From assembly GCA_903836515.1 (NCBI GenBank), contig CAILQW010000004.1, positions 5,036 through 69,035 of the forward strand: a DNA stretch of 64,000 nucleotides. The letters run 5' to 3'. Within the stretch, counting starts at the first letter, position 1, and each line of letters begins with the position of its first letter. The DNA comes from Candidatus Omnitrophota bacterium (GTDB lineage Bacteria > Omnitrophota > Gorgyraeia > Zapsychrales > Fredricksoniimonadaceae). Position numbers and translations under genes: made by a program. This document shows, piece after piece, positions 9,113-59,473 of the stretch. Under the pieces are notes generated by a model. That model did no database searches. It was not told the origin of the DNA and was given only the letters and a program-made list of their open reading frames with translations.

Positions 9113-9136
9113 TTTCTAATCCGTATAGCACACCTA

Positions 9137-9273
9137 GCTTTTACTGGTTTAAGGCTGAAGGCATGCCGCAGATGCGAGTTCAGAAACCAAGCTTTCCATA
9201 ATTCCTTTTAGAAAAAGCTGTTTCTGCTGTCTGAGCAGCCAGGCATGCCGCAAGCCTTAAAAACCAGTAAAAG
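9137..9273. repeat. large imperfect inverted repeat (~33-bp arms, ~70-nt nested-hairpin spacer) between ahbA and ahbD-like genes
   Basis: gcttttactggtttaaggctgaaggcatgccgca ... aggcatgccgcaagccttaaaaaccagtaaaag; spacer holds gcagaaac/gtttctgc stem and direct repeat aggcatgccgca. Confidence 0.55.
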
Positions 9274-9456
9274 ATCACACTCACAATCGAGAAATGCTCC
9301 ATCTCAATAATTAAAAATTTTTCGTCTGCCTTAACGCGCCACCCTTCCGGCTTCCCTCGGGGCTTGCGAGCCCCTCGTTCCAGGCGGAAGGGGACCATCG
9401 CTTGGCGCGGCGAAAACAACAACTGCCAAGCACGCCCAAGAATCAACTTTAAAATC

Positions 9457-37975: not shown

Positions 37976-38967
37976 GGTATCCTCAAGAAAATGGTCCTGG
38001 CCAGAATAACTTCAAGAAAAAGAAGCGCCAACGCCGCAAGCAGGACGATATCAAAATGCGCCTCGACCTGGCGGTAGCCTGTCTCGTCGAATTTCACCTT
38101 TTCCATTTTATCGATACGCTGGTAAATGCTCTTGAGCGAATCCGTATCCGTGGCGCGGAAATAAGCGCCGCCTGTCTTTTCAGCGATCTTGCGCAGAACA
38201 TCCTCATCGATCTCGATCTTCACATTCTGATAGACGGTACGGCCGAAAAGATCCTGCACCGGATACGGCGCCATCTCCCGGGTCCCGGCACCGATGGTGT
38301 AGATCCTGATCCCCAGCGCCGCGGCCGTATCCGCCGCCTCCAGGGGTGCCATCTTCCCCGCATTATTAACGCCGTCCGTCAGAAGCACAATGACCCGGCT
38401 CTTGCCTTCGGCCTTGCGCAGGCGCGCCACCCCGGCGGCAACAGCCGAACCTATGGCCGTGCCGTCTTCCATCAACCCGAAACGCACCCGTTCCAGATTC
38501 TGCAGCAGCCACGCATGATCAGCTGTCAGCGGGCTCACCGTATAGGGCTTTGCCGCAAAAGCGATGAGCCCCAGCCGGTCGTGCTCCCGCGCCGTGATGA
38601 AATCCTTCAGCACGGATTTGATCACATCCAGGCGGTTCATGCGCTTGCCGTTCAGGGTAAAATCCTCAGCCGCCATGCTCGTAGACGTATCCAGCAAAAG
38701 CGCCATATTGATCCCCTGGGCGCTTGACCTGGCGTCCTGCAAAAAGGTCTGCGGGCCTGCGAGGGCCACGATGAACAGGGCAAGGACCACGATCCTCAGC
38801 ACAAAAGGCGTATGCCTCAAGCGGGTCCGCCAGGTCGCAGGCAGGCCGGTAACGAACGCCACCGACGGAAAAAAGAAGGCCGGTGGTTTCAACCGGAAAT
38901 ACACATAAACAAGGGCCGGCAGGACCAGGGGGATCAACAGTAAAAACTGGGGGGTCTGGAAGGTCAT
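37972..38967 (-). CDS. batA: BatA-like vWA-domain membrane protein
   Basis: vWA MIDAS LLLDTSTSM, N- and C-terminal TM helices. Confidence 0.75.
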   Translation of the reverse strand: MTFQTPQFLLLIPLVLPALVYVYFRLKPPAFFFPSVAFVTGLPATWRTRLRHTPFVLRIVVLALFIVALAGPQTFLQDARSSAQGINMALLLDTSTSMAAEDFTLNGKRMNRLDVIKSVLKDFITAREHDRLGLIAFAAKPYTVSPLTADHAWLLQNLERVRFGLMEDGTAIGSAVAAGVARLRKAEGKSRVIVLLTDGVNNAGKMAPLEAADTAAALGIRIYTIGAGTREMAPYPVQDLFGRTVYQNVKIEIDEDVLRKIAEKTGGAYFRATDTDSLKSIYQRIDKMEKVKFDETGYRQVEAHFDIVLLAALALLFLEVILARTIFLRIP

Positions 38968-41404: not shown

Positions 41405-42589
41405 CTAGATATTGCCTTGTTCATACAGTTCGACGATCGCGGCCACCGCCGCGGGATGGTACCATACACCGGCATAACGCTTGATCTCGGCGATCGCGTA
41501 TTCCTTGGACAGGCCGGCGCGGTAAGGCCGGTCCGTGGTCATGGCATCAAAGGTGTCCGCCACGGCGATGATCGCCGAGATCATCGGGATCGCATCGCCT
41601 TTAAGGGCATTGGGATAGCCTGACCCGTCAAATTTCTCGTGATGATGCTTCACGCCCTCGATGCAGCCTTCAAAATCCTTAAGCGCCACGAGGATGTCCG
41701 CCCCCCGCGCGGAATGGGTCTTCATCACGGCATATTCCTCCGGCGTCAGGGGGCCTTTCTTGACGAGGATCGACTCCGGGATGCCTATCTTGCCGATATC
41801 ATGCAGGAGGCTGGCGATATAAAGATTCTCAAAGAATTTCTCGGCCACATTAAAAGCGCCTTGCTGCGCCATCGAGCGCGCGATCGCCTGCGCGCATTTG
41901 GTCACGCGTTCCGTATGGCCGTGCGTATAGGAATCCTTGGCCTCAATGGCCGATCCCAACGCGATCGTCGTCTGGATAAAAAGGTTACGGCTGCGGTCCG
42001 CTTCCTGTTTGAGACCTTCAAAGAGCTGGGCATTGCGGATGGCCATCGCCACGTCAGAAGCCAGCGCGGAAAAGAAATCAAGTTCGTCCTGCTCCAGCCG
42101 GGCCCCGTCATGTTTGGCCCCCAGCAAAAGGACCGCCAAAAGCTGGTGGCGGTAAAACGCCGGGACACAGGCCACGCTGTTGAGCATCGGCATCTGTTCA
42201 CTCACCTGACGGAGGATCTCGCGCGAACCATTGGCCGAACCCAGGACCGTCTCGTGCCAGATGAGGCGGTTGATGTCGTCAAAGACCAGCGCGTTGCGGC
42301 TGTCGATGAGGTACTTGTATTCTTTCTGGTGAAAAATGCGGATGATCGGATGCGTATGGTCAAAACGCAGGAAGCGTTCCGGGATACGGTCCCCGGACCC
42401 GCCGCGGGAAATGGCCAGGACATACGAATCACGCGCGGACTCATAGAGGATCATCCCGGCGTGGCGGAGCCTGGCCTTGCGCACGATCATGCGCACCAGG
42501 AGCTTGGTCAGAAGGACATGGTCATGGATCATGATCATGCCCTTGCTGGCGGTCTCAAGTTCTTTCTTGTAATCGATCTGTGTCATCAT
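41405..42589 (-). CDS. GAF domain + HD-GYP c-di-GMP phosphodiesterase
   Basis: HDIGKIGIP and GSGYP motifs, N-terminal GAF-like region. Confidence 0.8.
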   Translation of the reverse strand: MMTQIDYKKELETASKGMIMIHDHVLLTKLLVRMIVRKARLRHAGMILYESARDSYVLAISRGGSGDRIPERFLRFDHTHPIIRIFHQKEYKYLIDSRNALVFDDINRLIWHETVLGSANGSREILRQVSEQMPMLNSVACVPAFYRHQLLAVLLLGAKHDGARLEQDELDFFSALASDVAMAIRNAQLFEGLKQEADRSRNLFIQTTIALGSAIEAKDSYTHGHTERVTKCAQAIARSMAQQGAFNVAEKFFENLYIASLLHDIGKIGIPESILVKKGPLTPEEYAVMKTHSARGADILVALKDFEGCIEGVKHHHEKFDGSGYPNALKGDAIPMISAIIAVADTFDAMTTDRPYRAGLSKEYAIAEIKRYAGVWYHPAAVAAIVELYEQGNI

Positions 42590-42951
42590 GATTGAAGAGA
42601 AAACTCGCGCAGCACGACCTTCTCAAGCTCCTCAAGGATAAGGGGCTTGTGAATAAAGCCCAGCGCTCCCAGCGCGATGGTTTCCTGCACGACCTGTTCG
42701 TCCTCTATGCCCGACACCATGATCACCTTGACGGGATTCTCCAGCCGGCGGAGTTCCCGCAGGACATCAAGACCGGACATGTCTCCCATGCGGATATCCA
42801 AAAGAACCAGGTCCGGGCATTCCCCTGTAATCATGCCCATGGCTTCGGGGCCATTGGCGGCAATAAAAACATCCAGGCCCCGCTTGCGAAAGAAATTCCG
42901 CGCGAATTCCCGGACATCGAGTTCGTCATCCACGATCAATAATTTTGGCAT
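42586..42951 (-). CDS. response regulator receiver domain protein
   Basis: LLIVDDELDVREF, LVLLDIRMGDMSG, 4-nt overlap with HD-GYP gene. Confidence 0.8.
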   Translation of the reverse strand: MPKLLIVDDELDVREFARNFFRKRGLDVFIAANGPEAMGMITGECPDLVLLDIRMGDMSGLDVLRELRRLENPVKVIMVSGIEDEQVVQETIALGALGFIHKPLILEELEKVVLREFSLQS

Positions 42952-42954
42952 AAA

Positions 42955-43106
42955 TCCAGATTTTGAAGTAGCACCATTTTATCGACGAATCCATACGCAC
43001 AAAATGGTGCGGATGCAAAATCGTCGGCTTCCATATCTTTTATCGTCCGGAAAAGCCGGGCTTATCCCGCGTTCCTCTGTTCCTGTGGCAACATGCGGGA
43101 TAAACG
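42955..43106. repeat. copy 1 of a ~150-nt conserved multi-hairpin intergenic element (candidate structured RNA / regulatory repeat)
   Basis: ~88% identical to 56447-56602; nested stems gattttg/caaaatc, gcaccatttt/aaaatggtgc, cggctt/aagccg, ttatcccgc/gcgggataa. Confidence 0.7.
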
Positions 43107-43171
43107 TATTATATTACAAATCGTTTATTTTCAATGGTCTTTATAATAATTCATTGCCTGCAGGAAGGATA

Positions 43172-45325
43172 TTATTCTTTGTTCGCCGCCAGATGAAGGA
43201 TCATATGGGTCCCCTGGCCGTAGACTGAATTCATTTCAACCTTGCCGCCGTGATTGTCCTCGATGATCTTGCGGATCACATACAACCCCAGGCCGGTCCC
43301 TTTCTTGCTTGTCGCCTTGGTTGTGAAAAAAGGCGTAAAAAGCTTGCCGCTGTCCATGGGCTTGACCCCGATGCCGTTATCGCTGAAAATAATTTCCAGC
43401 AGGCCGTCGGCCTCTTTTACACTTACGGTCAACAGCCCGGCATAACCCTCTTCTTTCATCTCGGCCTTCCGCTGGACGGTCGCATCATAGGCATTATCGA
43501 TCAAATTGAAGAAGACCTCCTGCAGCTGCGTGAAATTCCCGCGCACGCAAGGGATCGCGGCAGGATCGAACGCCTTCACGAGCCTGAACTCGGGGGAACG
43601 GATCTTGAACTGCGCCATCTCATAAGCGCTGCGGATGATCTCGTCGATGTTGTGCCCTGCGAAACCTTCTTCGCCCTTGCGCGTATAGCGCATCAACCCC
43701 TGAACAATCTCTCCCCCGCGCGTGACATTCTCCTGAATGCGCGACAAGGAATATTCAAACTCATCGGCAAAGGTCCTCAGGTCGTCTGTCACAAATGAAA
43801 GCCGGCGCAGCTTGAGCGTATCCATCATGTCGCTGGCGATGAAGCCCATGGCATGAAGGCGGTTATTGATCTGATGGGAAAGCCCGTCGGCCATGGTGCC
43901 GATAGTCGCCATTTTTTCCGCCCTGAAAAGCTGTTCCTGCGTTTTTTTCATGTCCTCGTACGACTGGGCATTCTCGATGGCCAGCGATGTCTGGTTGGAC
44001 AGGATGGAGAAAACATTGAGGTCATCTTCCGTATAATTGCGGCCGTTCGATTTTTTCCCCATCACCACAATGGCAATAATATTCATGCGAATGAAGACCG
44101 GGAAGACCACCTCGGCGCCCATGTCTTCCATCGCGGCGTCAATGGCCGCGAACCCCGCATCCTTCTCCTGCCGCGCCCGCTGGGTCACCTCATCACGCAC
44201 AAGCGGCAGCGACACGGTCGACAAGTATTGCACCACAGGGCAAAGCGGCTCCAGCTGTGGTTTCAACGTACCTCCCTGCCGCATCCGCCGTGAGGCCGCC
44301 AGGTGAAAAATCCCTGTATCGCGGTCAATGAAATAAATCATGGCATGATCCAGGCGCACCACGCGTGCCAGGATAAAAACAATCAGATTAAGGAGCCGCT
44401 TCAAATCGCGGATGCGCCCCATCCCGGCGGAAGCCTGGCGGAGGGTGGCCTGATACCGGCGCTGTTCCTGCAAAAGCCGTTCCTCGATCCTTTTCTGAAG
44501 ATACAGGTAAACAAACGGGCCTACCGTCGCCAGTGCAGCCATGGTCGTCACCGGCAGAAGCCACCTGTCCGGATATCTGAACCCGATGATAAAAGGAATC
44601 CCCAAAACCAGCGTATAGACGCTCAGGAATATGCCCAGTTTGGTGAAGGCCACGGACATATCCAGGAGGCGGAACTTGACAATAGCATACGCCATCAGCA
44701 GGCTGTAGGCCGCCACCAAAATGTCGTGGGGAAATATTTCGGGGATGCCGTAAGAGGCCAGGAAATGGATCAACCCGCTGACAAACGCCATGGCAAAGGC
44801 CACGCCAATGTAAAGAAGCTGATTCCGGCGGGCTTCCTTGGCCGATACAAACCGCTCCCATAACTTGATGGAGGCAAAAAGATACATGAAAGCAAAAAAA
44901 GCGATGAAAAACGGATAGCTCTCGCCCGGAACAATCCCGTAACCGTAATCATTGGGCCTGATATCACGGATGAAAAACGGTGTCAGGCTTATCGACAGAA
45001 ATATCATGGACACAAAGAATGAGCCTACCAGGATGGCCTGTGTCACCCGATGCCGTCCCAGCTCAAGGAGCTGGGACATGAAAATAAAGAAGCCTGTGGG
45101 GACAAAGATCGCTGAAACATAAATGCCGCGAAGGATGACAAGAAGAACATCTTTTCCCAACGGAAGGGATGAAACAAACGGCGACATGCTCCAGACCGCG
45201 ATGAGCATGGTCACGCAGGCGAAGGAACGGCGTATGGCTGAAAAACCGGCCCGGAAGATGATGAACACCGCCAACAGCAGGCAGATGCCGGACGCCAGGA
45301 TTGATACCAGCGCATGGTATTTCAT
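43172..45325 (-). CDS. sensor histidine kinase with N-terminal 7TM sensor region and GAF domain
   Basis: ~7 TM helices, GAF, HisKA (GLSHQINNRLH), HATPase_c (GTGLGLYVIRKII); start taken at MKYHALV. Confidence 0.8.
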   Translation of the reverse strand: MKYHALVSILASGICLLLAVFIIFRAGFSAIRRSFACVTMLIAVWSMSPFVSSLPLGKDVLLVILRGIYVSAIFVPTGFFIFMSQLLELGRHRVTQAILVGSFFVSMIFLSISLTPFFIRDIRPNDYGYGIVPGESYPFFIAFFAFMYLFASIKLWERFVSAKEARRNQLLYIGVAFAMAFVSGLIHFLASYGIPEIFPHDILVAAYSLLMAYAIVKFRLLDMSVAFTKLGIFLSVYTLVLGIPFIIGFRYPDRWLLPVTTMAALATVGPFVYLYLQKRIEERLLQEQRRYQATLRQASAGMGRIRDLKRLLNLIVFILARVVRLDHAMIYFIDRDTGIFHLAASRRMRQGGTLKPQLEPLCPVVQYLSTVSLPLVRDEVTQRARQEKDAGFAAIDAAMEDMGAEVVFPVFIRMNIIAIVVMGKKSNGRNYTEDDLNVFSILSNQTSLAIENAQSYEDMKKTQEQLFRAEKMATIGTMADGLSHQINNRLHAMGFIASDMMDTLKLRRLSFVTDDLRTFADEFEYSLSRIQENVTRGGEIVQGLMRYTRKGEEGFAGHNIDEIIRSAYEMAQFKIRSPEFRLVKAFDPAAIPCVRGNFTQLQEVFFNLIDNAYDATVQRKAEMKEEGYAGLLTVSVKEADGLLEIIFSDNGIGVKPMDSGKLFTPFFTTKATSKKGTGLGLYVIRKIIEDNHGGKVEMNSVYGQGTHMILHLAANKE

Positions 45326-46524
45326 GAGGGGATCAGACCAAAGAATTTCTTCTTGGCGTAAGCCATCAGCAGCCCGAAATTGGCCTTGTCGATGGGCGGG
45401 CAAACAATACCGGCGCGCGCCATGGCGGACGCGTAATTCGATGTGTCAAAGAGCATCGGCAGACCGGCCACGTAAGGGTTGAAGATGCGGCCCATGGTGC
45501 GGTAATAAAAATTTTCACGGGCATTTTTCTTGACGGGCACACGATCCACATGGTGCACGCCGGTGATATTCAAATGACGGAGCATCTCATCAAGATAAAA
45601 CTGATGCGGCGTTTCCGCGGGGCTGGTCAGATTAAAACCGTTCCCCGGACAATCCTGGGTGCATATCTGATAAACGGCCTTGGCCACATAATCGACAGGC
45701 ACAATATTCAGCCCGGCCAGGGGATTGGAAAACACGCGGGCATCGACATCGAAGGGTATCTCAAAAATACGCTCCCGGTCAGTCACCTCTTTCATCTTGA
45801 GGGCTAGAAAAAAAGCGCCCCAGCTGTAAAAGACATCGAATTTGTTGATGGTCCCCAGGGGCGGTTCGATCAGCCTCCCGCACACCGATGAAGGACGGAA
45901 TATTCTGATGCGGCGTCCGGTCTTGAGGGAAAAATCCCTCACCATCTTTTCGGATTTCAGTTTCGCCAGTTCGTAAGGATTACGAAATTCACGTTTGAAA
46001 TCCGTATCATCCGGACCTATGTTCCCGCTGGCTATCCCGCAGGCATACGCCGTGCTGACATAACAAAATTCGCGGACATCCATCCCCTCAACCAGGCCAA
46101 GAAGCTTGCCGGTCCCGTCGCTGTTTACACGCTTGACGTACGCCTGGACCGCATCCGAATCGCGCAGGTCCGTGGACGCCGCGCTGTGAAAGAAATGGTC
46201 TATCCGATGGGCCCTCAATAACGCGAGGTCACGGGCGCCGATGCCTATCCCGTCAAAATAAAGATCCATCTCAATGAAATGGACCCTCTGCGCGGCAAAA
46301 TCCTCCAGCTCCCTGGCACCGTGCGCGATCCCGCAATAATCGGCGCCGTCCACCAACAGATCGGCCATGACGCGCGCACGAAAACTGACCCCGCCCTGTT
46401 CGCGGCCCAGCAAAAAAACGTGAAGCCTTCCCAGATCGGCCATATTTTGACGGATATACTCGTAAAAAATATTCCGGCCGATTAACCCCGTGACTCCGGT
46501 AACAGCAATGCGTATGTCTTTCAT
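45322..46524 (-). CDS. SDR-family NAD-binding protein, thioester-reductase / NAD_binding_4-like
   Basis: IAVTGVTGLIGRNI Rossmann, 400 aa, YxxxK-like region. Confidence 0.55.
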   Translation of the reverse strand: MKDIRIAVTGVTGLIGRNIFYEYIRQNMADLGRLHVFLLGREQGGVSFRARVMADLLVDGADYCGIAHGARELEDFAAQRVHFIEMDLYFDGIGIGARDLALLRAHRIDHFFHSAASTDLRDSDAVQAYVKRVNSDGTGKLLGLVEGMDVREFCYVSTAYACGIASGNIGPDDTDFKREFRNPYELAKLKSEKMVRDFSLKTGRRIRIFRPSSVCGRLIEPPLGTINKFDVFYSWGAFFLALKMKEVTDRERIFEIPFDVDARVFSNPLAGLNIVPVDYVAKAVYQICTQDCPGNGFNLTSPAETPHQFYLDEMLRHLNITGVHHVDRVPVKKNARENFYYRTMGRIFNPYVAGLPMLFDTSNYASAMARAGIVCPPIDKANFGLLMAYAKKKFFGLIPS

Positions 46525-55173: not shown

Positions 55174-56214
<1,041 letters not shown>

Positions 56215-56446
56215 GAACAACTCCTTATTCCCGGCCATGTTGGTGCGGCCTAAGCCTTCTTTTCATTATTCAAATAAACAAACAGCCCGGTAAAACTGAA
56301 CAAGCCGAAAGAAACAACACCCAGTTTATTGTAAAGAGCCCTTCTTTCCCGAATAATGTTCCCATTCAGTGCCGCATAGAGCTATGCCTACAATTTAACG
56401 AAATAAACGATTTTATGCAGATTGTATTACATGCTAATAGATTAAC

Positions 56447-56602
56447 CCAGATTTTGCAGTAGCATCATTTTATCGACGAGTCCCTGCGCACAAAATGGTG
56501 CGGATGCAAAATCGTCGGCTTCCGTATCTTTTCCCGTCCAGAAAAGCCGGGGTTATCCCGCGTTCATCTGTTCCTATTGGCGCACCAAAATGCGGGATTA
56601 AA
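56447..56602. repeat. copy 2 of the ~150-nt conserved multi-hairpin element
   Basis: Aligns over full length with 42955-43106; abuts stop of the 50-aa antitoxin-like ORF. Confidence 0.7.
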
Positions 56603-56750
56603 AAGCCTGACTGGCCGGTATTCTTGCAACTTTGCCATTCTTCCAAACGATCACAGGCATACCAAGCCGTTTTCGCTCTTCCACGACTTTATGAACAGCC
56701 GACTTTAACGCATCGAAAGCCTTGTCTGAAATATCTTTCGTCTTGGCCAC
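56598..56750 (-). CDS. small antitoxin-like protein (Phd/YefM-N-terminal-like or AbrB-like motif), 50 aa
   Basis: GTG start 4 nt after stop of zeta-like gene, GGAG 9 nt upstream; VAKTKDISDKAFDALKSAVHKVVEERKRLGMPVIVWKNGKVARIPASQAF; low GC like its neighbour. Confidence 0.35.
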   Translation of the reverse strand: MAKTKDISDKAFDALKSAVHKVVEERKRLGMPVIVWKNGKVARIPASQAF

Positions 56751-56754
56751 AAGA

Positions 56755-57324
56755 TCATCTCCATTTAATTACTTTTTCGAATAATACTTGATCAATAACA
56801 TTAAGTCCGCCGTTCTTCTTTGCAATCAATCGTGGCTGGGCCGCTGAATTATCAAACAAGTCCCATGCATCCAGAAAAGGCTCATAAATTTTCAAAAAGT
56901 TATACATACTCCTGTCAAACCGGCGTAAAACGTCTGCTTTAGGGACATCATGCCCACCCAAAGAAACTCTCTCCTTAATGCGCGCTAACGAAAGATCAGG
57001 ATCAGGAACCCACAAGAAAAACAAACGGATGAAATAACCCTTGGTACACAATACCTTTAATAAAGGAAGATACGTCTTGCCAGATAATGTCGTCTCAAAA
57101 CCAAAGTCTATCTTTCTGTCTGAAAAATCATTAATTTGCTTCAACACAATACGTCCGGCATGAATCGCTGATGTTTGTGGCAAAAACGGTGATAACCCTT
57201 GAGCAATAAGATCCGCGTTAATAAAATTATTACACCGCGCATACTTAGGCAGAAATTCTCGAGCAAAAGTAGTCTTCCCCGATCCGTTAGGCCCTGCAAT
57301 AATATAAAGATTAGGTTTCTTCAT
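56755..57324 (-). CDS. zeta-toxin-like / AAA_33 P-loop kinase family protein
   Basis: 189 aa, Walker A GPNGSGKTT at N-term, size and layout of zeta-toxin/predicted-kinase family; ~40% GC island. Confidence 0.5.
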   Translation of the reverse strand: MKKPNLYIIAGPNGSGKTTFAREFLPKYARCNNFINADLIAQGLSPFLPQTSAIHAGRIVLKQINDFSDRKIDFGFETTLSGKTYLPLLKVLCTKGYFIRLFFLWVPDPDLSLARIKERVSLGGHDVPKADVLRRFDRSMYNFLKIYEPFLDAWDLFDNSAAQPRLIAKKNGGLNVIDQVLFEKVIKWR

Positions 57325-57394
57325 AAAAGAGATTATACCATAAAAAGAAAGGCCGTTTAGCCGGTAATTGTAATGGGCGGAATTCCGGGCGGTG

Positions 57395-59473
57395 TTACCC
57401 CCCTGAAAGGCCTTCCAGATACGCGGGATAACGCTGACGGATGGTATCCCGGACCAGCGGATGGGCCTTCAACAACGGGTCAGCCTTGACCAGGGCCTGC
57501 GCTTCCGCACGCGCGGCTTCAAGCACCTGTCTTTGACCAGCAGGGTTGATGATTTTCAACTCGTCAAGCCCGTGCTGATGCCGGCCGAAATACTGGCCCG
57601 GCCCGCGGATCTCAAGGTCCTGCTGCGCGATCTCAAACCCGTCGTTGGTCCTGACCAGCGCCTCAATGCGTTTTTTTCCATCCTCTGTCCCGGGGTCCCC
57701 CAGAAGAATACATACGGCGTTCTTTTCACTGCGCCCGATGCGGCCCCGCAGCTGGTGAAGCTGGGCCAACCCAAAACGTTCGGCATGTTCGATCACCATG
57801 ACATTGGCATTGGGCACATCGATCCCCACCTCCAGCACCGTCGTTGTCACCAAAATATCGATCTCATGACGCTGGAAGCTGTCCATGACCCGCCGTGCGT
57901 CTTCCCGGGGCATACGGCCATGTACCAGGCCCACCCGAAGCCCCTTAAACTCATGCTCCAGAAAGTGTGCGTACATATCCACAGCCGCCTTGATATCCAG
58001 CTTCTCCGACTCTTCAATGATCGGATAAACGATATACGCCTGGGTTTTACGTTCCGCCACCCATTCCGCCACCCGCCGGTAAACCCCTTCAGCCTGGTCT
58101 CCCGTAAAATGATAGGTCTTCACCTTGCCACGGCCTTTGGGTTTTTCATCGATCGTCGAGACATCCAGATCGCCGTAAAGCGTCAAGGACAACGTGCGCG
58201 GGATCGGCGTAGCGGTCATGACCAGCACATCGGGATTTTTTCCCTTGGAAGACAAGATCGCCCTTTGTTTAACGCCAAACTTATGCTGCTCGTCAATGAC
58301 AACATAGCTAAGCGCCTTGAAGCGCACCCCCTCTTCAATGAGCGCATGTGTCCCGACCACCACATCCACCTCCCCCGCAGCGATGGCCGTGTACAGTGCC
58401 GCACGGTCCTTCTTCTTCAGTGCACTATTCAGGAGAGCCACCCTCACCTGGCCAAAAGGCGAACGGGCCAGATATTTCAGGATGGTCCGAAAATGCTGTT
58501 CCGCGAGAATTTCCGTCGGGGCCATGACCGCAGCCTGTTTGCCGCTCACAACAGCGGCCATGCACCCGAAAAGCGCCACCGCGGTCTTGCCGCACCCCAC
58601 ATCCCCCTGCAGGAGCCTCAGCATGGGACGCTTATTGCTCATGTCGGAGGTTATGGTGGCGATGACCTTCTCTTGGGCCTGGGTCAGGGCAAATGGAAAA
58701 AGACCGGAAAAACGCTTCCTCATGTCTGCAGGGATCGTATGGGCAAAACCCGGCTTGCGTGCCAGATGCATGCGCCGCAGCATGACACATACCTGGAAAA
58801 AAAAGAACTCCTCGAATGAAATGCGCCGGCTGCCTTCATCCTGCGCCTGTTCATCATCGGGGAAATGGATCTGCACGATGCTCCTGGCGATAGGCCCCAG
58901 GTGCTGGCGCTGGCGCACATCGGATGGAATGACATCATCAAGGCCGGCGGCATGATGTTCCAGGGCAAAAAAAATGAGTTTGCGCAGGTAGCGCTGGCCC
59001 ATCCCTTTGGTCAAGGGGTACACCGGGACAATGCGCCCCACACTCAGGCGCGTATCCCCCGCGGCCATGAGTTCGTATTCAGGCGCAACGATCTGCAGGC
59101 GGTCCTTAAAAAGCTCCACCCGTCCGTGAAGGACAACCTTATCGCCGACATGGAAATATTTGTCGAGATACGGCTGGTTGAACCACACGCAGTGCACCCG
59201 CGCCTGCGCGTCCCCGAATTCCATTTCAAAAACATGCTTTTTATTGAAAAAAACCCTGCGTCCGCCCTTGGCCAGGACTTCGCCTTCAACCGTCTGCCAC
59301 TCCCCCGGCTTCAGGCTGGCCACAGGCGTCATGTGACGGCGGTCTTCATATCTCAGGGGAAAAAGATAAAGGAGATCCTCGACGGTACGAACACCAAGTT
59401 TTTCGAACAGTTTGGCGCGTGCAGGCCCTACCCCTTTCAGGAACTGGATGGGGATGTCATGCGGGGATCCCAT
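57395..59473 (-). CDS. recG: ATP-dependent DNA helicase RecG
   Basis: 692 aa, wedge domain + DEQHKFG (DExH) + GDVGCGKT Walker A + helicase C. Confidence 0.9.
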   Translation of the reverse strand: MGSPHDIPIQFLKGVGPARAKLFEKLGVRTVEDLLYLFPLRYEDRRHMTPVASLKPGEWQTVEGEVLAKGGRRVFFNKKHVFEMEFGDAQARVHCVWFNQPYLDKYFHVGDKVVLHGRVELFKDRLQIVAPEYELMAAGDTRLSVGRIVPVYPLTKGMGQRYLRKLIFFALEHHAAGLDDVIPSDVRQRQHLGPIARSIVQIHFPDDEQAQDEGSRRISFEEFFFFQVCVMLRRMHLARKPGFAHTIPADMRKRFSGLFPFALTQAQEKVIATITSDMSNKRPMLRLLQGDVGCGKTAVALFGCMAAVVSGKQAAVMAPTEILAEQHFRTILKYLARSPFGQVRVALLNSALKKKDRAALYTAIAAGEVDVVVGTHALIEEGVRFKALSYVVIDEQHKFGVKQRAILSSKGKNPDVLVMTATPIPRTLSLTLYGDLDVSTIDEKPKGRGKVKTYHFTGDQAEGVYRRVAEWVAERKTQAYIVYPIIEESEKLDIKAAVDMYAHFLEHEFKGLRVGLVHGRMPREDARRVMDSFQRHEIDILVTTTVLEVGIDVPNANVMVIEHAERFGLAQLHQLRGRIGRSEKNAVCILLGDPGTEDGKKRIEALVRTNDGFEIAQQDLEIRGPGQYFGRHQHGLDELKIINPAGQRQVLEAARAEAQALVKADPLLKAHPLVRDTIRQRYPAYLEGLSGG

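Follow-up and report, generated by a model that had tools for sequence, protein, structure and literature searches.

Two copies of a 145–151 bp intergenic repeat are probable miniature transposons in an uncultured Candidatus Omnitrophota bacterium

Two repeated segments in a 64,000-nucleotide stretch of DNA from an uncultured Candidatus Omnitrophota bacterium (hereafter the window) are very probably copies of a non-autonomous DNA transposon (MITE) of 145–151 bp. By exact-protein look-ups, the organism occurs in many metagenomes, and the named homologues of the HD-GYP and pyruvate kinase proteins encoded in the window were almost all annotated as Candidatus Omnitrophota or Omnitrophica. An initial annotation had left three readings of the pair side by side: a small structured RNA, a cis-regulatory RNA and a miniature mobile element. 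The mobile element is favoured by terminal inverted repeats, target-site duplications, additional copies and an empty site in related genomes, and neither RNA reading was supported. The inverted repeats, the duplications and the additional copies argue against an RNA, as the initial annotation itself had specified in advance.

Copy 1 occupies positions 42955–43099 (145 bp) and copy 2 positions 56446–56596 (151 bp), both on the plus strand, as delimited by alignments and an inverted-repeat search. The size and the lack of a transposase gene are those of a MITE. The copies were identical in 130 of 145 ungapped columns (89.7%) and differed in addition by a 6-nt indel, while BLAST returned 85.7% identity over 161 columns including this indel (E ~6e-48). 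These values agree with the end-to-end identity of about 88% noted previously. On the same strand, about 42950–43104 aligned with 56441–56601, with sharp borders and unrelated flanks. Searches by blastn, nhmmer and self-BLAST revealed no further whole or partial copy in the 64-kb window, and copies 1 and 2 were the sole dispersed repeat pair in its self-comparison. The sequence beyond both window ends contained no additional copy.

The element is bounded by 17-bp terminal inverted repeats, as is characteristic of a MITE: CCCAGATTTTGCAGTAG at the left end and CCCGCATTTTGCAATAG, the reverse complement of the right end, match ungapped at 14 of 17 positions. The end-to-end match score was reached by 5 of 2000 shuffles for the copy on contig L023 and by 39 of 2000 for the copy on contig L021, both described below. 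The left repeats in the window are TCCAGATTTTGAAGTAG for copy 1 (42955–42971) and CCCAGATTTTGCAGTAG for copy 2 (56446–56462). At the right end, the repeat has degenerated in both window copies, by three substitutions in copy 1 (43083–43099; reverse complement CCCGCATGTTGCCACAG) and by a 6-nt insertion that splits it in copy 2 (56574–56596). The core GATTTTGCA is present three times, namely at the left end, inverted in the middle (about nt 59–68) and inverted at the right end. Because this core recurs inverted at about nt 59–68, the left 68 nt fold alone into a long hairpin. The internal hairpins largely reflect repeated inverted-repeat-like sequence; they would be a by-product of transposition or a requirement for it, and not evidence of an RNA gene. 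The 17-bp repeats would be bound by a transposase that is presumably supplied in trans. The window and the 317 kb of fetched loci yielded neither an autonomous parent or transposase with matching ends nor a second inverted-repeat pair. A lone 14/17 match to the left end, TCCAGATTCTGCAGCAG, lies at window positions 38492–38508 with no partner end nearby, and is probably due to chance.

The initial annotation had proposed to look for target-site duplications, and 5-bp AT-rich direct repeats were indeed found flanking the copies. Copy 1 lies between ATAAA (42950–42954) and ATAAA (43100–43104), the latter recognized from the sequence and the alignment of relatives, and copy 2 lies between ATTAA (56441–56445) and ATTAA (56597–56601). 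The L023 copy is flanked by ATTAA on both sides and the L021 copy by ATAAA on the left and ATAAT on the right. As in MITEs, the repeats differ between copies, and all duplications of the four complete copies fit ATWAA. The A/T agreement between the flanks could partly be due to shared descent of the copies. A DDE-type transposase would cut AT-rich ATWAA targets with a 5-bp stagger and leave a duplication of this length. The left duplication of copy 1 overlaps the start codon of a receiver-domain gene (CAT at 42949–42951, i.e., ATG on the minus strand), and the right duplication of copy 2 holds the stop codon of a 50-aa open reading frame (ORF; TAA on the minus strand, 56598–56600).

Additional copies, for which the initial annotation had proposed a BLASTN/nhmmer search, were found in different contexts. 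A metagenome scan with the conserved core returned four contigs, all from one sample (L021, L022, L023 and L024), in a collection that evidently does not cover other samples with this organism, such as the source of L018. Contig L024 is the copy-2 locus itself and terminates within the element, while L021, L022 and L023 carry differently flanked copies that are 89–96% identical to the window copies. Together with the two loci in the window, at least five differently flanked loci were found, i.e., the multiple dispersed copies in unrelated contexts that are expected of a MITE. Ends, flanks and folds were compared among the four complete copies (copy 1, copy 2, L021 and L023). Copy 1 was present at the same site in the same-species contigs L016–L020, and copy 2 in the same-species contigs L029, L030, L035, L042 and L043. 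Five contig ends from several independent assemblies fall inside the element (L022, L024/L032, L031, L033 and L044), as expected of a multi-copy repeat.

The orientation of the element to genes was not consistent. In L023 it has the same sense as its neighbours: a small gene on that strand precedes it, and the start of a 420-aa ORF follows after 33 nt (28 nt counting the right target duplication). The window copies, as stated before, and the L021 copy are antisense to their neighbouring genes. The L021 copy is inserted within the 3' end of a 173-aa ORF (L021:2924–2945), the frame of which continues 17 nt into the element; by reconstruction, its predicted C-terminus would have changed from ...KQLSLVR to ...KQLSRILQ.

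No copy was detected by nhmmer in about 70 kb from the related genomes L025–L028 and L036–L040. A scan of a genome collection that seems to lack the source genome, with a 22-nt degenerate core pattern, gave 15 matches, all of them chance matches and none extending past the seed. A viral collection scanned with a 22-mer from the element core gave no match, nor did a BLAST search of a plasmid collection with the element.

Copy 1 allowed the occupied site to be compared with the empty one. It lies between a 7TM-GAF histidine kinase gene (43172–45403, minus strand), the stop of which adjoins the copy 1 spacer, and the receiver-domain gene (42586–42951, minus strand; PF00072, 5e-28), the ATG of which abuts copy 1. 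The context assigned before, between a histidine-kinase stop and the start of a REC/HD-GYP operon, was verified by Pfam. The receiver gene is the first in a run of receiver, HD-GYP and MoxR-like ATPase genes, and HD-GYP orthologues of 81–84% identity in the same gene order are present in three related genomes. The kinase-to-receiver spacer is 220 nt long in the window, versus 53 nt in L025, 69 nt in L026 and 64 nt in L027, and the element is absent at the orthologous spacer in L025, L026 and L027/L028, all of them from related Omnitrophota genomes.

Read in gene sense, the relatives show TTGAAA-N15-TATAAT-AAG-TAT-ATG (...TATAATAAG-TAT-ATG), and the window shows TTGAAA-N15-TATAAT-ACG-TTTAT-(145-nt element)-TTTAT-G (...TATAATACG-TTTAT-(element)-TTTAT-G). 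Taking out the element and one TTTAT yields TATAAT-ACGTTT-ATG, with a 6-nt spacing as in L025 and L027; one reconstructed empty junction, lacking the element, joins CGTATTATA to ATAAA and CAT. The receiver ATG draws on the last two bases of the duplicated target, and the relatives hold the target motif just once, as TAT before ATG. Judged from these alignments, copy 1 was inserted precisely and duplicated 5 bp of its target. It entered between TTTAT and G, exactly between the -10-like TATAAT box and the receiver start codon.

The box TTGAAA-N15-TATAAT (43108–43134, minus strand) is the putative promoter of the receiver/HD-GYP operon. The two hexamers are conserved at the same distance of 15 nt in the window and in L025, L026 and L027, with a different spacer sequence in L026; the conserved box lies in L025:6697–6749, L026:6021–6089 and L027:8569–8632. 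A promoter scan at spacings of 16–18 nt does not report the box at 43108–43134. Since TATAAT lies only 6–9 nt before the receiver ATG in the relatives, with no Shine-Dalgarno sequence, the arrangement suggests that the receiver operon is leaderless in these Omnitrophota and has an unusually short 15-nt promoter spacer. After the insertion, just a weak GGA precedes the receiver AUG. A transcript from the old promoter would carry the whole element as its leader (minus strand, -54 kcal/mol), and read-through from the kinase gene would be an alternative source of receiver expression. The receiver protein (121 aa) was identical across the 17 metagenome contigs read, and therefore the gene is evidently still maintained.

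In a second strain, represented by contig L019 (94.8% identical overall), the element occupies this site too, between identical duplications, and differs at 6 of 145 positions. At four of these six positions the deviation from the family consensus is in the window copy and not in L019, and one of these four changes breaks the outer stem. With 6/145 differences between strains that are 5.2% apart, copy 1 is not visibly decaying faster than its flanks. In one of the related genomes, a tandem duplication precedes the HD-GYP gene (L027:8633–10004 and L028:1600–2971), in the order receiver gene, 181-aa GAF fragment and second receiver gene.

Copy 2 lies in the region upstream of the pyruvate kinase gene (55174–56238, minus strand), next to the stop of the 50-aa ORF (56598–56750, minus strand), which follows a zeta-like gene. 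This is the context given originally, between a low-GC zeta-like/antitoxin-like pair and the pyruvate kinase upstream region. Copy 2 would have inserted at the stop codon of the small ORF, within a variable toxin-antitoxin islet between recG and the pyruvate kinase gene. The spacer between these two genes measures 43 nt in L039, 648 nt in L036 and 1157 nt in the window (L039:9958–10000, L036:2164–2811 and window 56240–57395). The islet holds the zeta-like gene and the 50-aa ORF in the window, and several toxin-antitoxin and AAA_14 genes in another relative. In the nearest relative, L036, whose pyruvate kinase is 90% identical, 256 nt of unrelated sequence stand where the window has the toxin pair, the element and a further 48 nt. 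Because the region is wholly replaced there, no exact empty junction is available for copy 2. The same spacer of L036, a sister lineage without copy 2, contains a solitary 17-mer, CCCGCATTTTTTAATAG (L036:2329–2345, minus strand), which differs from the MITE right end by two mismatches and is inverted relative to copy 2. About 0.05 chance matches of this kind are expected in all sequence examined, and the 17-mer may be a remnant of another insertion at a hot spot.

Hairpins and AT-rich flanks could also belong to an IS200/IS605-type palindrome-associated element. Its Y1 TnpA would insert 3' of ATWAA without a duplication, and the right ATWAA would be the element's own cleavage site. Strong local hairpins do lie at or near both ends, ATWAA stands on both sides of every copy, and the lone ATWAA-like motif at the empty site fits this mode of insertion as well as it fits a duplication. 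However, the ends are mutual inverted repeats (14/17), which that family lacks, and its typical combination of subterminal hairpins with neither terminal inverted repeats nor a duplication was found here only as regards the hairpins. In addition, the W base agrees between left and right in 4/4 complete copies, for which the chance is 1/16 if the two sides are independent, and no TnpA or TnpB gene was seen near any copy. An element of this type is thus very unlikely.

Equally improbable is a structured non-coding RNA whose hairpins would be the functional product, whether as a small RNA encoded by a multi-copy gene or as a cis-regulatory leader. Both strands fold better than dinucleotide shuffles (z-scores of -2.9 to -4.5), and the four stems predicted in the initial annotation were recovered in the RNAalifold consensus fold. 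In the fourth stem, the outer base pairs (ttat/ataa) are formed between the element and the flanking duplicated target. Stems were better conserved than loops, with substitutions in 7/80 paired versus 16/65 unpaired columns (Fisher p = 0.012, the structure having been predicted from the same sequences as were tested). Fewer substitutions in paired columns would also be predicted by selection on either RNA or DNA structure, and conservation of the inverted-repeat-like pairing is equally expected if the paired sequences are transposase-binding sites. If transcription still starts at the old promoter, copy 1 would, on the minus strand, make up a 5' leader of the receiver gene. Yet the element is missing from the same operon in three relatives and is therefore not a conserved regulator of that operon, and an RNA gene would leave the inverted repeats and the duplications unexplained.

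The sequence changes among the copies did not favour an RNA either. The C-to-T substitution in the 10-bp stem, from which transcription of the plus strand had been argued, indeed leaves a G-U pair on that strand; the argument is offset by a C-to-A change in copy 1 that breaks the outer stem, with A.G on the plus and C.U on the minus strand. The covariation check proposed along with it gave no support: among the four copies, one or two stem changes were wobble-compatible and several were breaks, and none of the 40–42 predicted pairs showed a compensatory change on either strand, in a comparison that has low power with copies about 90% alike. No covariance model of a known structured RNA family matched: Rfam gave no hit at the gathering score in the whole window and none at E <= 1 over copy 1, in line with the earlier failure to assign the element to a riboswitch class. 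No intrinsic terminator was found around copy 1, and no promoter is common to both copies; the sole promoter-like match spans the copy 1 right end and flank and, for this reason, cannot be shared by copy 2. Nor does the element keep a fixed position and orientation relative to genes.

A passive repeat, i.e., segmental duplication or gene conversion between intergenic regions without mobility, would suit the two copies in the 64-kb window, but it is hardly credible given the sharp borders with unrelated flanks, at least three further copies in other contexts, the inverted repeats with flanking 5-bp repeats and the precise insertion relative to the empty site.

Three further candidates were rejected. 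In all copies, two frames on the plus strand are free of stops, and the indel preserves the frame; as a coding sequence, the element would have its starts and stops in unrelated flanks, and the translated stop-free frame had no homologue among 5.8 billion proteins. By inspection, a Sigma-54 promoter or enhancer site was dismissed because its GG/GC elements are wrongly spaced and the indel makes the spacing unequal between copies. An integron attC site was likewise dismissed, as the RYYYAAC/GTTRRRY core sites are absent and copy 1 lies outside any cassette array.

The MITE interpretation places the element among well-known bacterial repeats. Correia elements of Neisseria, RUP of Streptococcus pneumoniae and ERIC/IRU of enterobacteria are MITEs of about 100–150 bp that are non-coding and have terminal inverted repeats. 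They are flanked by short target duplications, lie in intergenic regions near gene starts and stops, form stable hairpins when transcribed and in some cases change the expression of adjacent genes. The element resembles them in size, lack of coding capacity, inverted repeats, duplications, intergenic spread and hairpins. It differs from Correia elements and RUP, which duplicate TA, by its 5-bp duplication at ATWAA, and from all three families by its third, internal inverted-repeat-like copy. The Rfam and plasmid searches disclosed no similarity to a described MITE family, the distinction from Correia, RUP and ERIC being one of features, and no literature linking MITEs with Omnitrophota was found. 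The element is thus an undescribed MITE family in Omnitrophota, of a well-known kind.

With regard to the source of the transposase, the IS1380 family is a lead only, taken from the CC ends and the 5-bp duplication. In IS1247, a member of this family, the inverted repeats are 16 bp long and the direct repeat 5 bp (PMC3281130, Table 2). The ends of ISEcp1 begin with CC (left CCTAGATTCTACGT, right as reverse complement CCTAAATTCCACGT, confirmed in plasmid pC15-1a), and the MITE left end CCCAGATTTTGCAG matches its left end weakly (9/14). A 5-bp duplication, inverted repeats of similar length and a CC start (CCC in the MITE) are shared with this family. These features, a duplication of 4–5 bp and inverted repeats of about 14–16 bp beginning with CC, are not exclusive to it, since other families also generate 4–5 bp duplications. 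Neither the surroundings of the copies nor the fetched sequence yielded a transposase of the IS1380 type. The IS1380 family is known to use alternative downstream right-end-like sequences (PMC9330008), and, by analogy, this could explain an element with two right-end-like repeats.

Tn3-family elements form another group for comparison; their ends are about 38 bp long and begin with GGGG. Tn3-derived inverted-repeat miniature elements (TIMEs) are non-autonomous, insert into AT-rich sequence with 5–6 bp duplications and, among those captured, measure 262 bp or more (PMC4133298). The element described here likewise is non-autonomous and has AT-rich targets and a 5-bp duplication, but its ends of 17 bp start with CCC and its length is about 150 bp.

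Two further short palindromic repeat families lie side by side in the window (9133–9276 and 9310–9418), the first with inverted ends of about 19 bp (CTTTTACTGGTTT..AAGGC). Copies with 87–95% identity occur at L021:175–318, L022:3977–4085 and L022:4144–4234, and the genome seems to carry several MITE-like families. At window position 9275/9276 (L045:3980), exactly at the end of the 9133–9276 repeat, synteny between independent assemblies of the same organism breaks, and three different gene contexts precede one and the same set of downstream genes. This break could be due to either a strain rearrangement or a repeat-induced chimeric assembly.

The described element leaves the current understanding of mobile elements unchanged. 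What it adds is a new family, marked by its clear 5-bp ATWAA target and by inverted-repeat-like sequence at three sites. In uncultured phyla, an intergenic repeat with several hairpins can easily pass for a new RNA family, and here the comparison with the empty site settles the question between MITE and RNA. Since the element breaks metagenome assemblies, it also bears on the quality of genomes binned from these samples.

A role of copy 1 at its present site may be considered separately. The insertion might have given a leaderless receiver/HD-GYP operon of c-di-GMP signalling a leader of about 150 nt that consists entirely of the MITE, the hairpins of which would now be under selection for control of translation or stability. 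Although rather doubtful, this is consistent with the better conservation of the stems and the low divergence between strains. If true, copy 1 would be a MITE exapted by its host, in a phylum from which none has so far been described. Copy 1 represents a natural experiment, in which an apparently leaderless operon tolerates or exploits an inserted structured leader while its protein remains intact.
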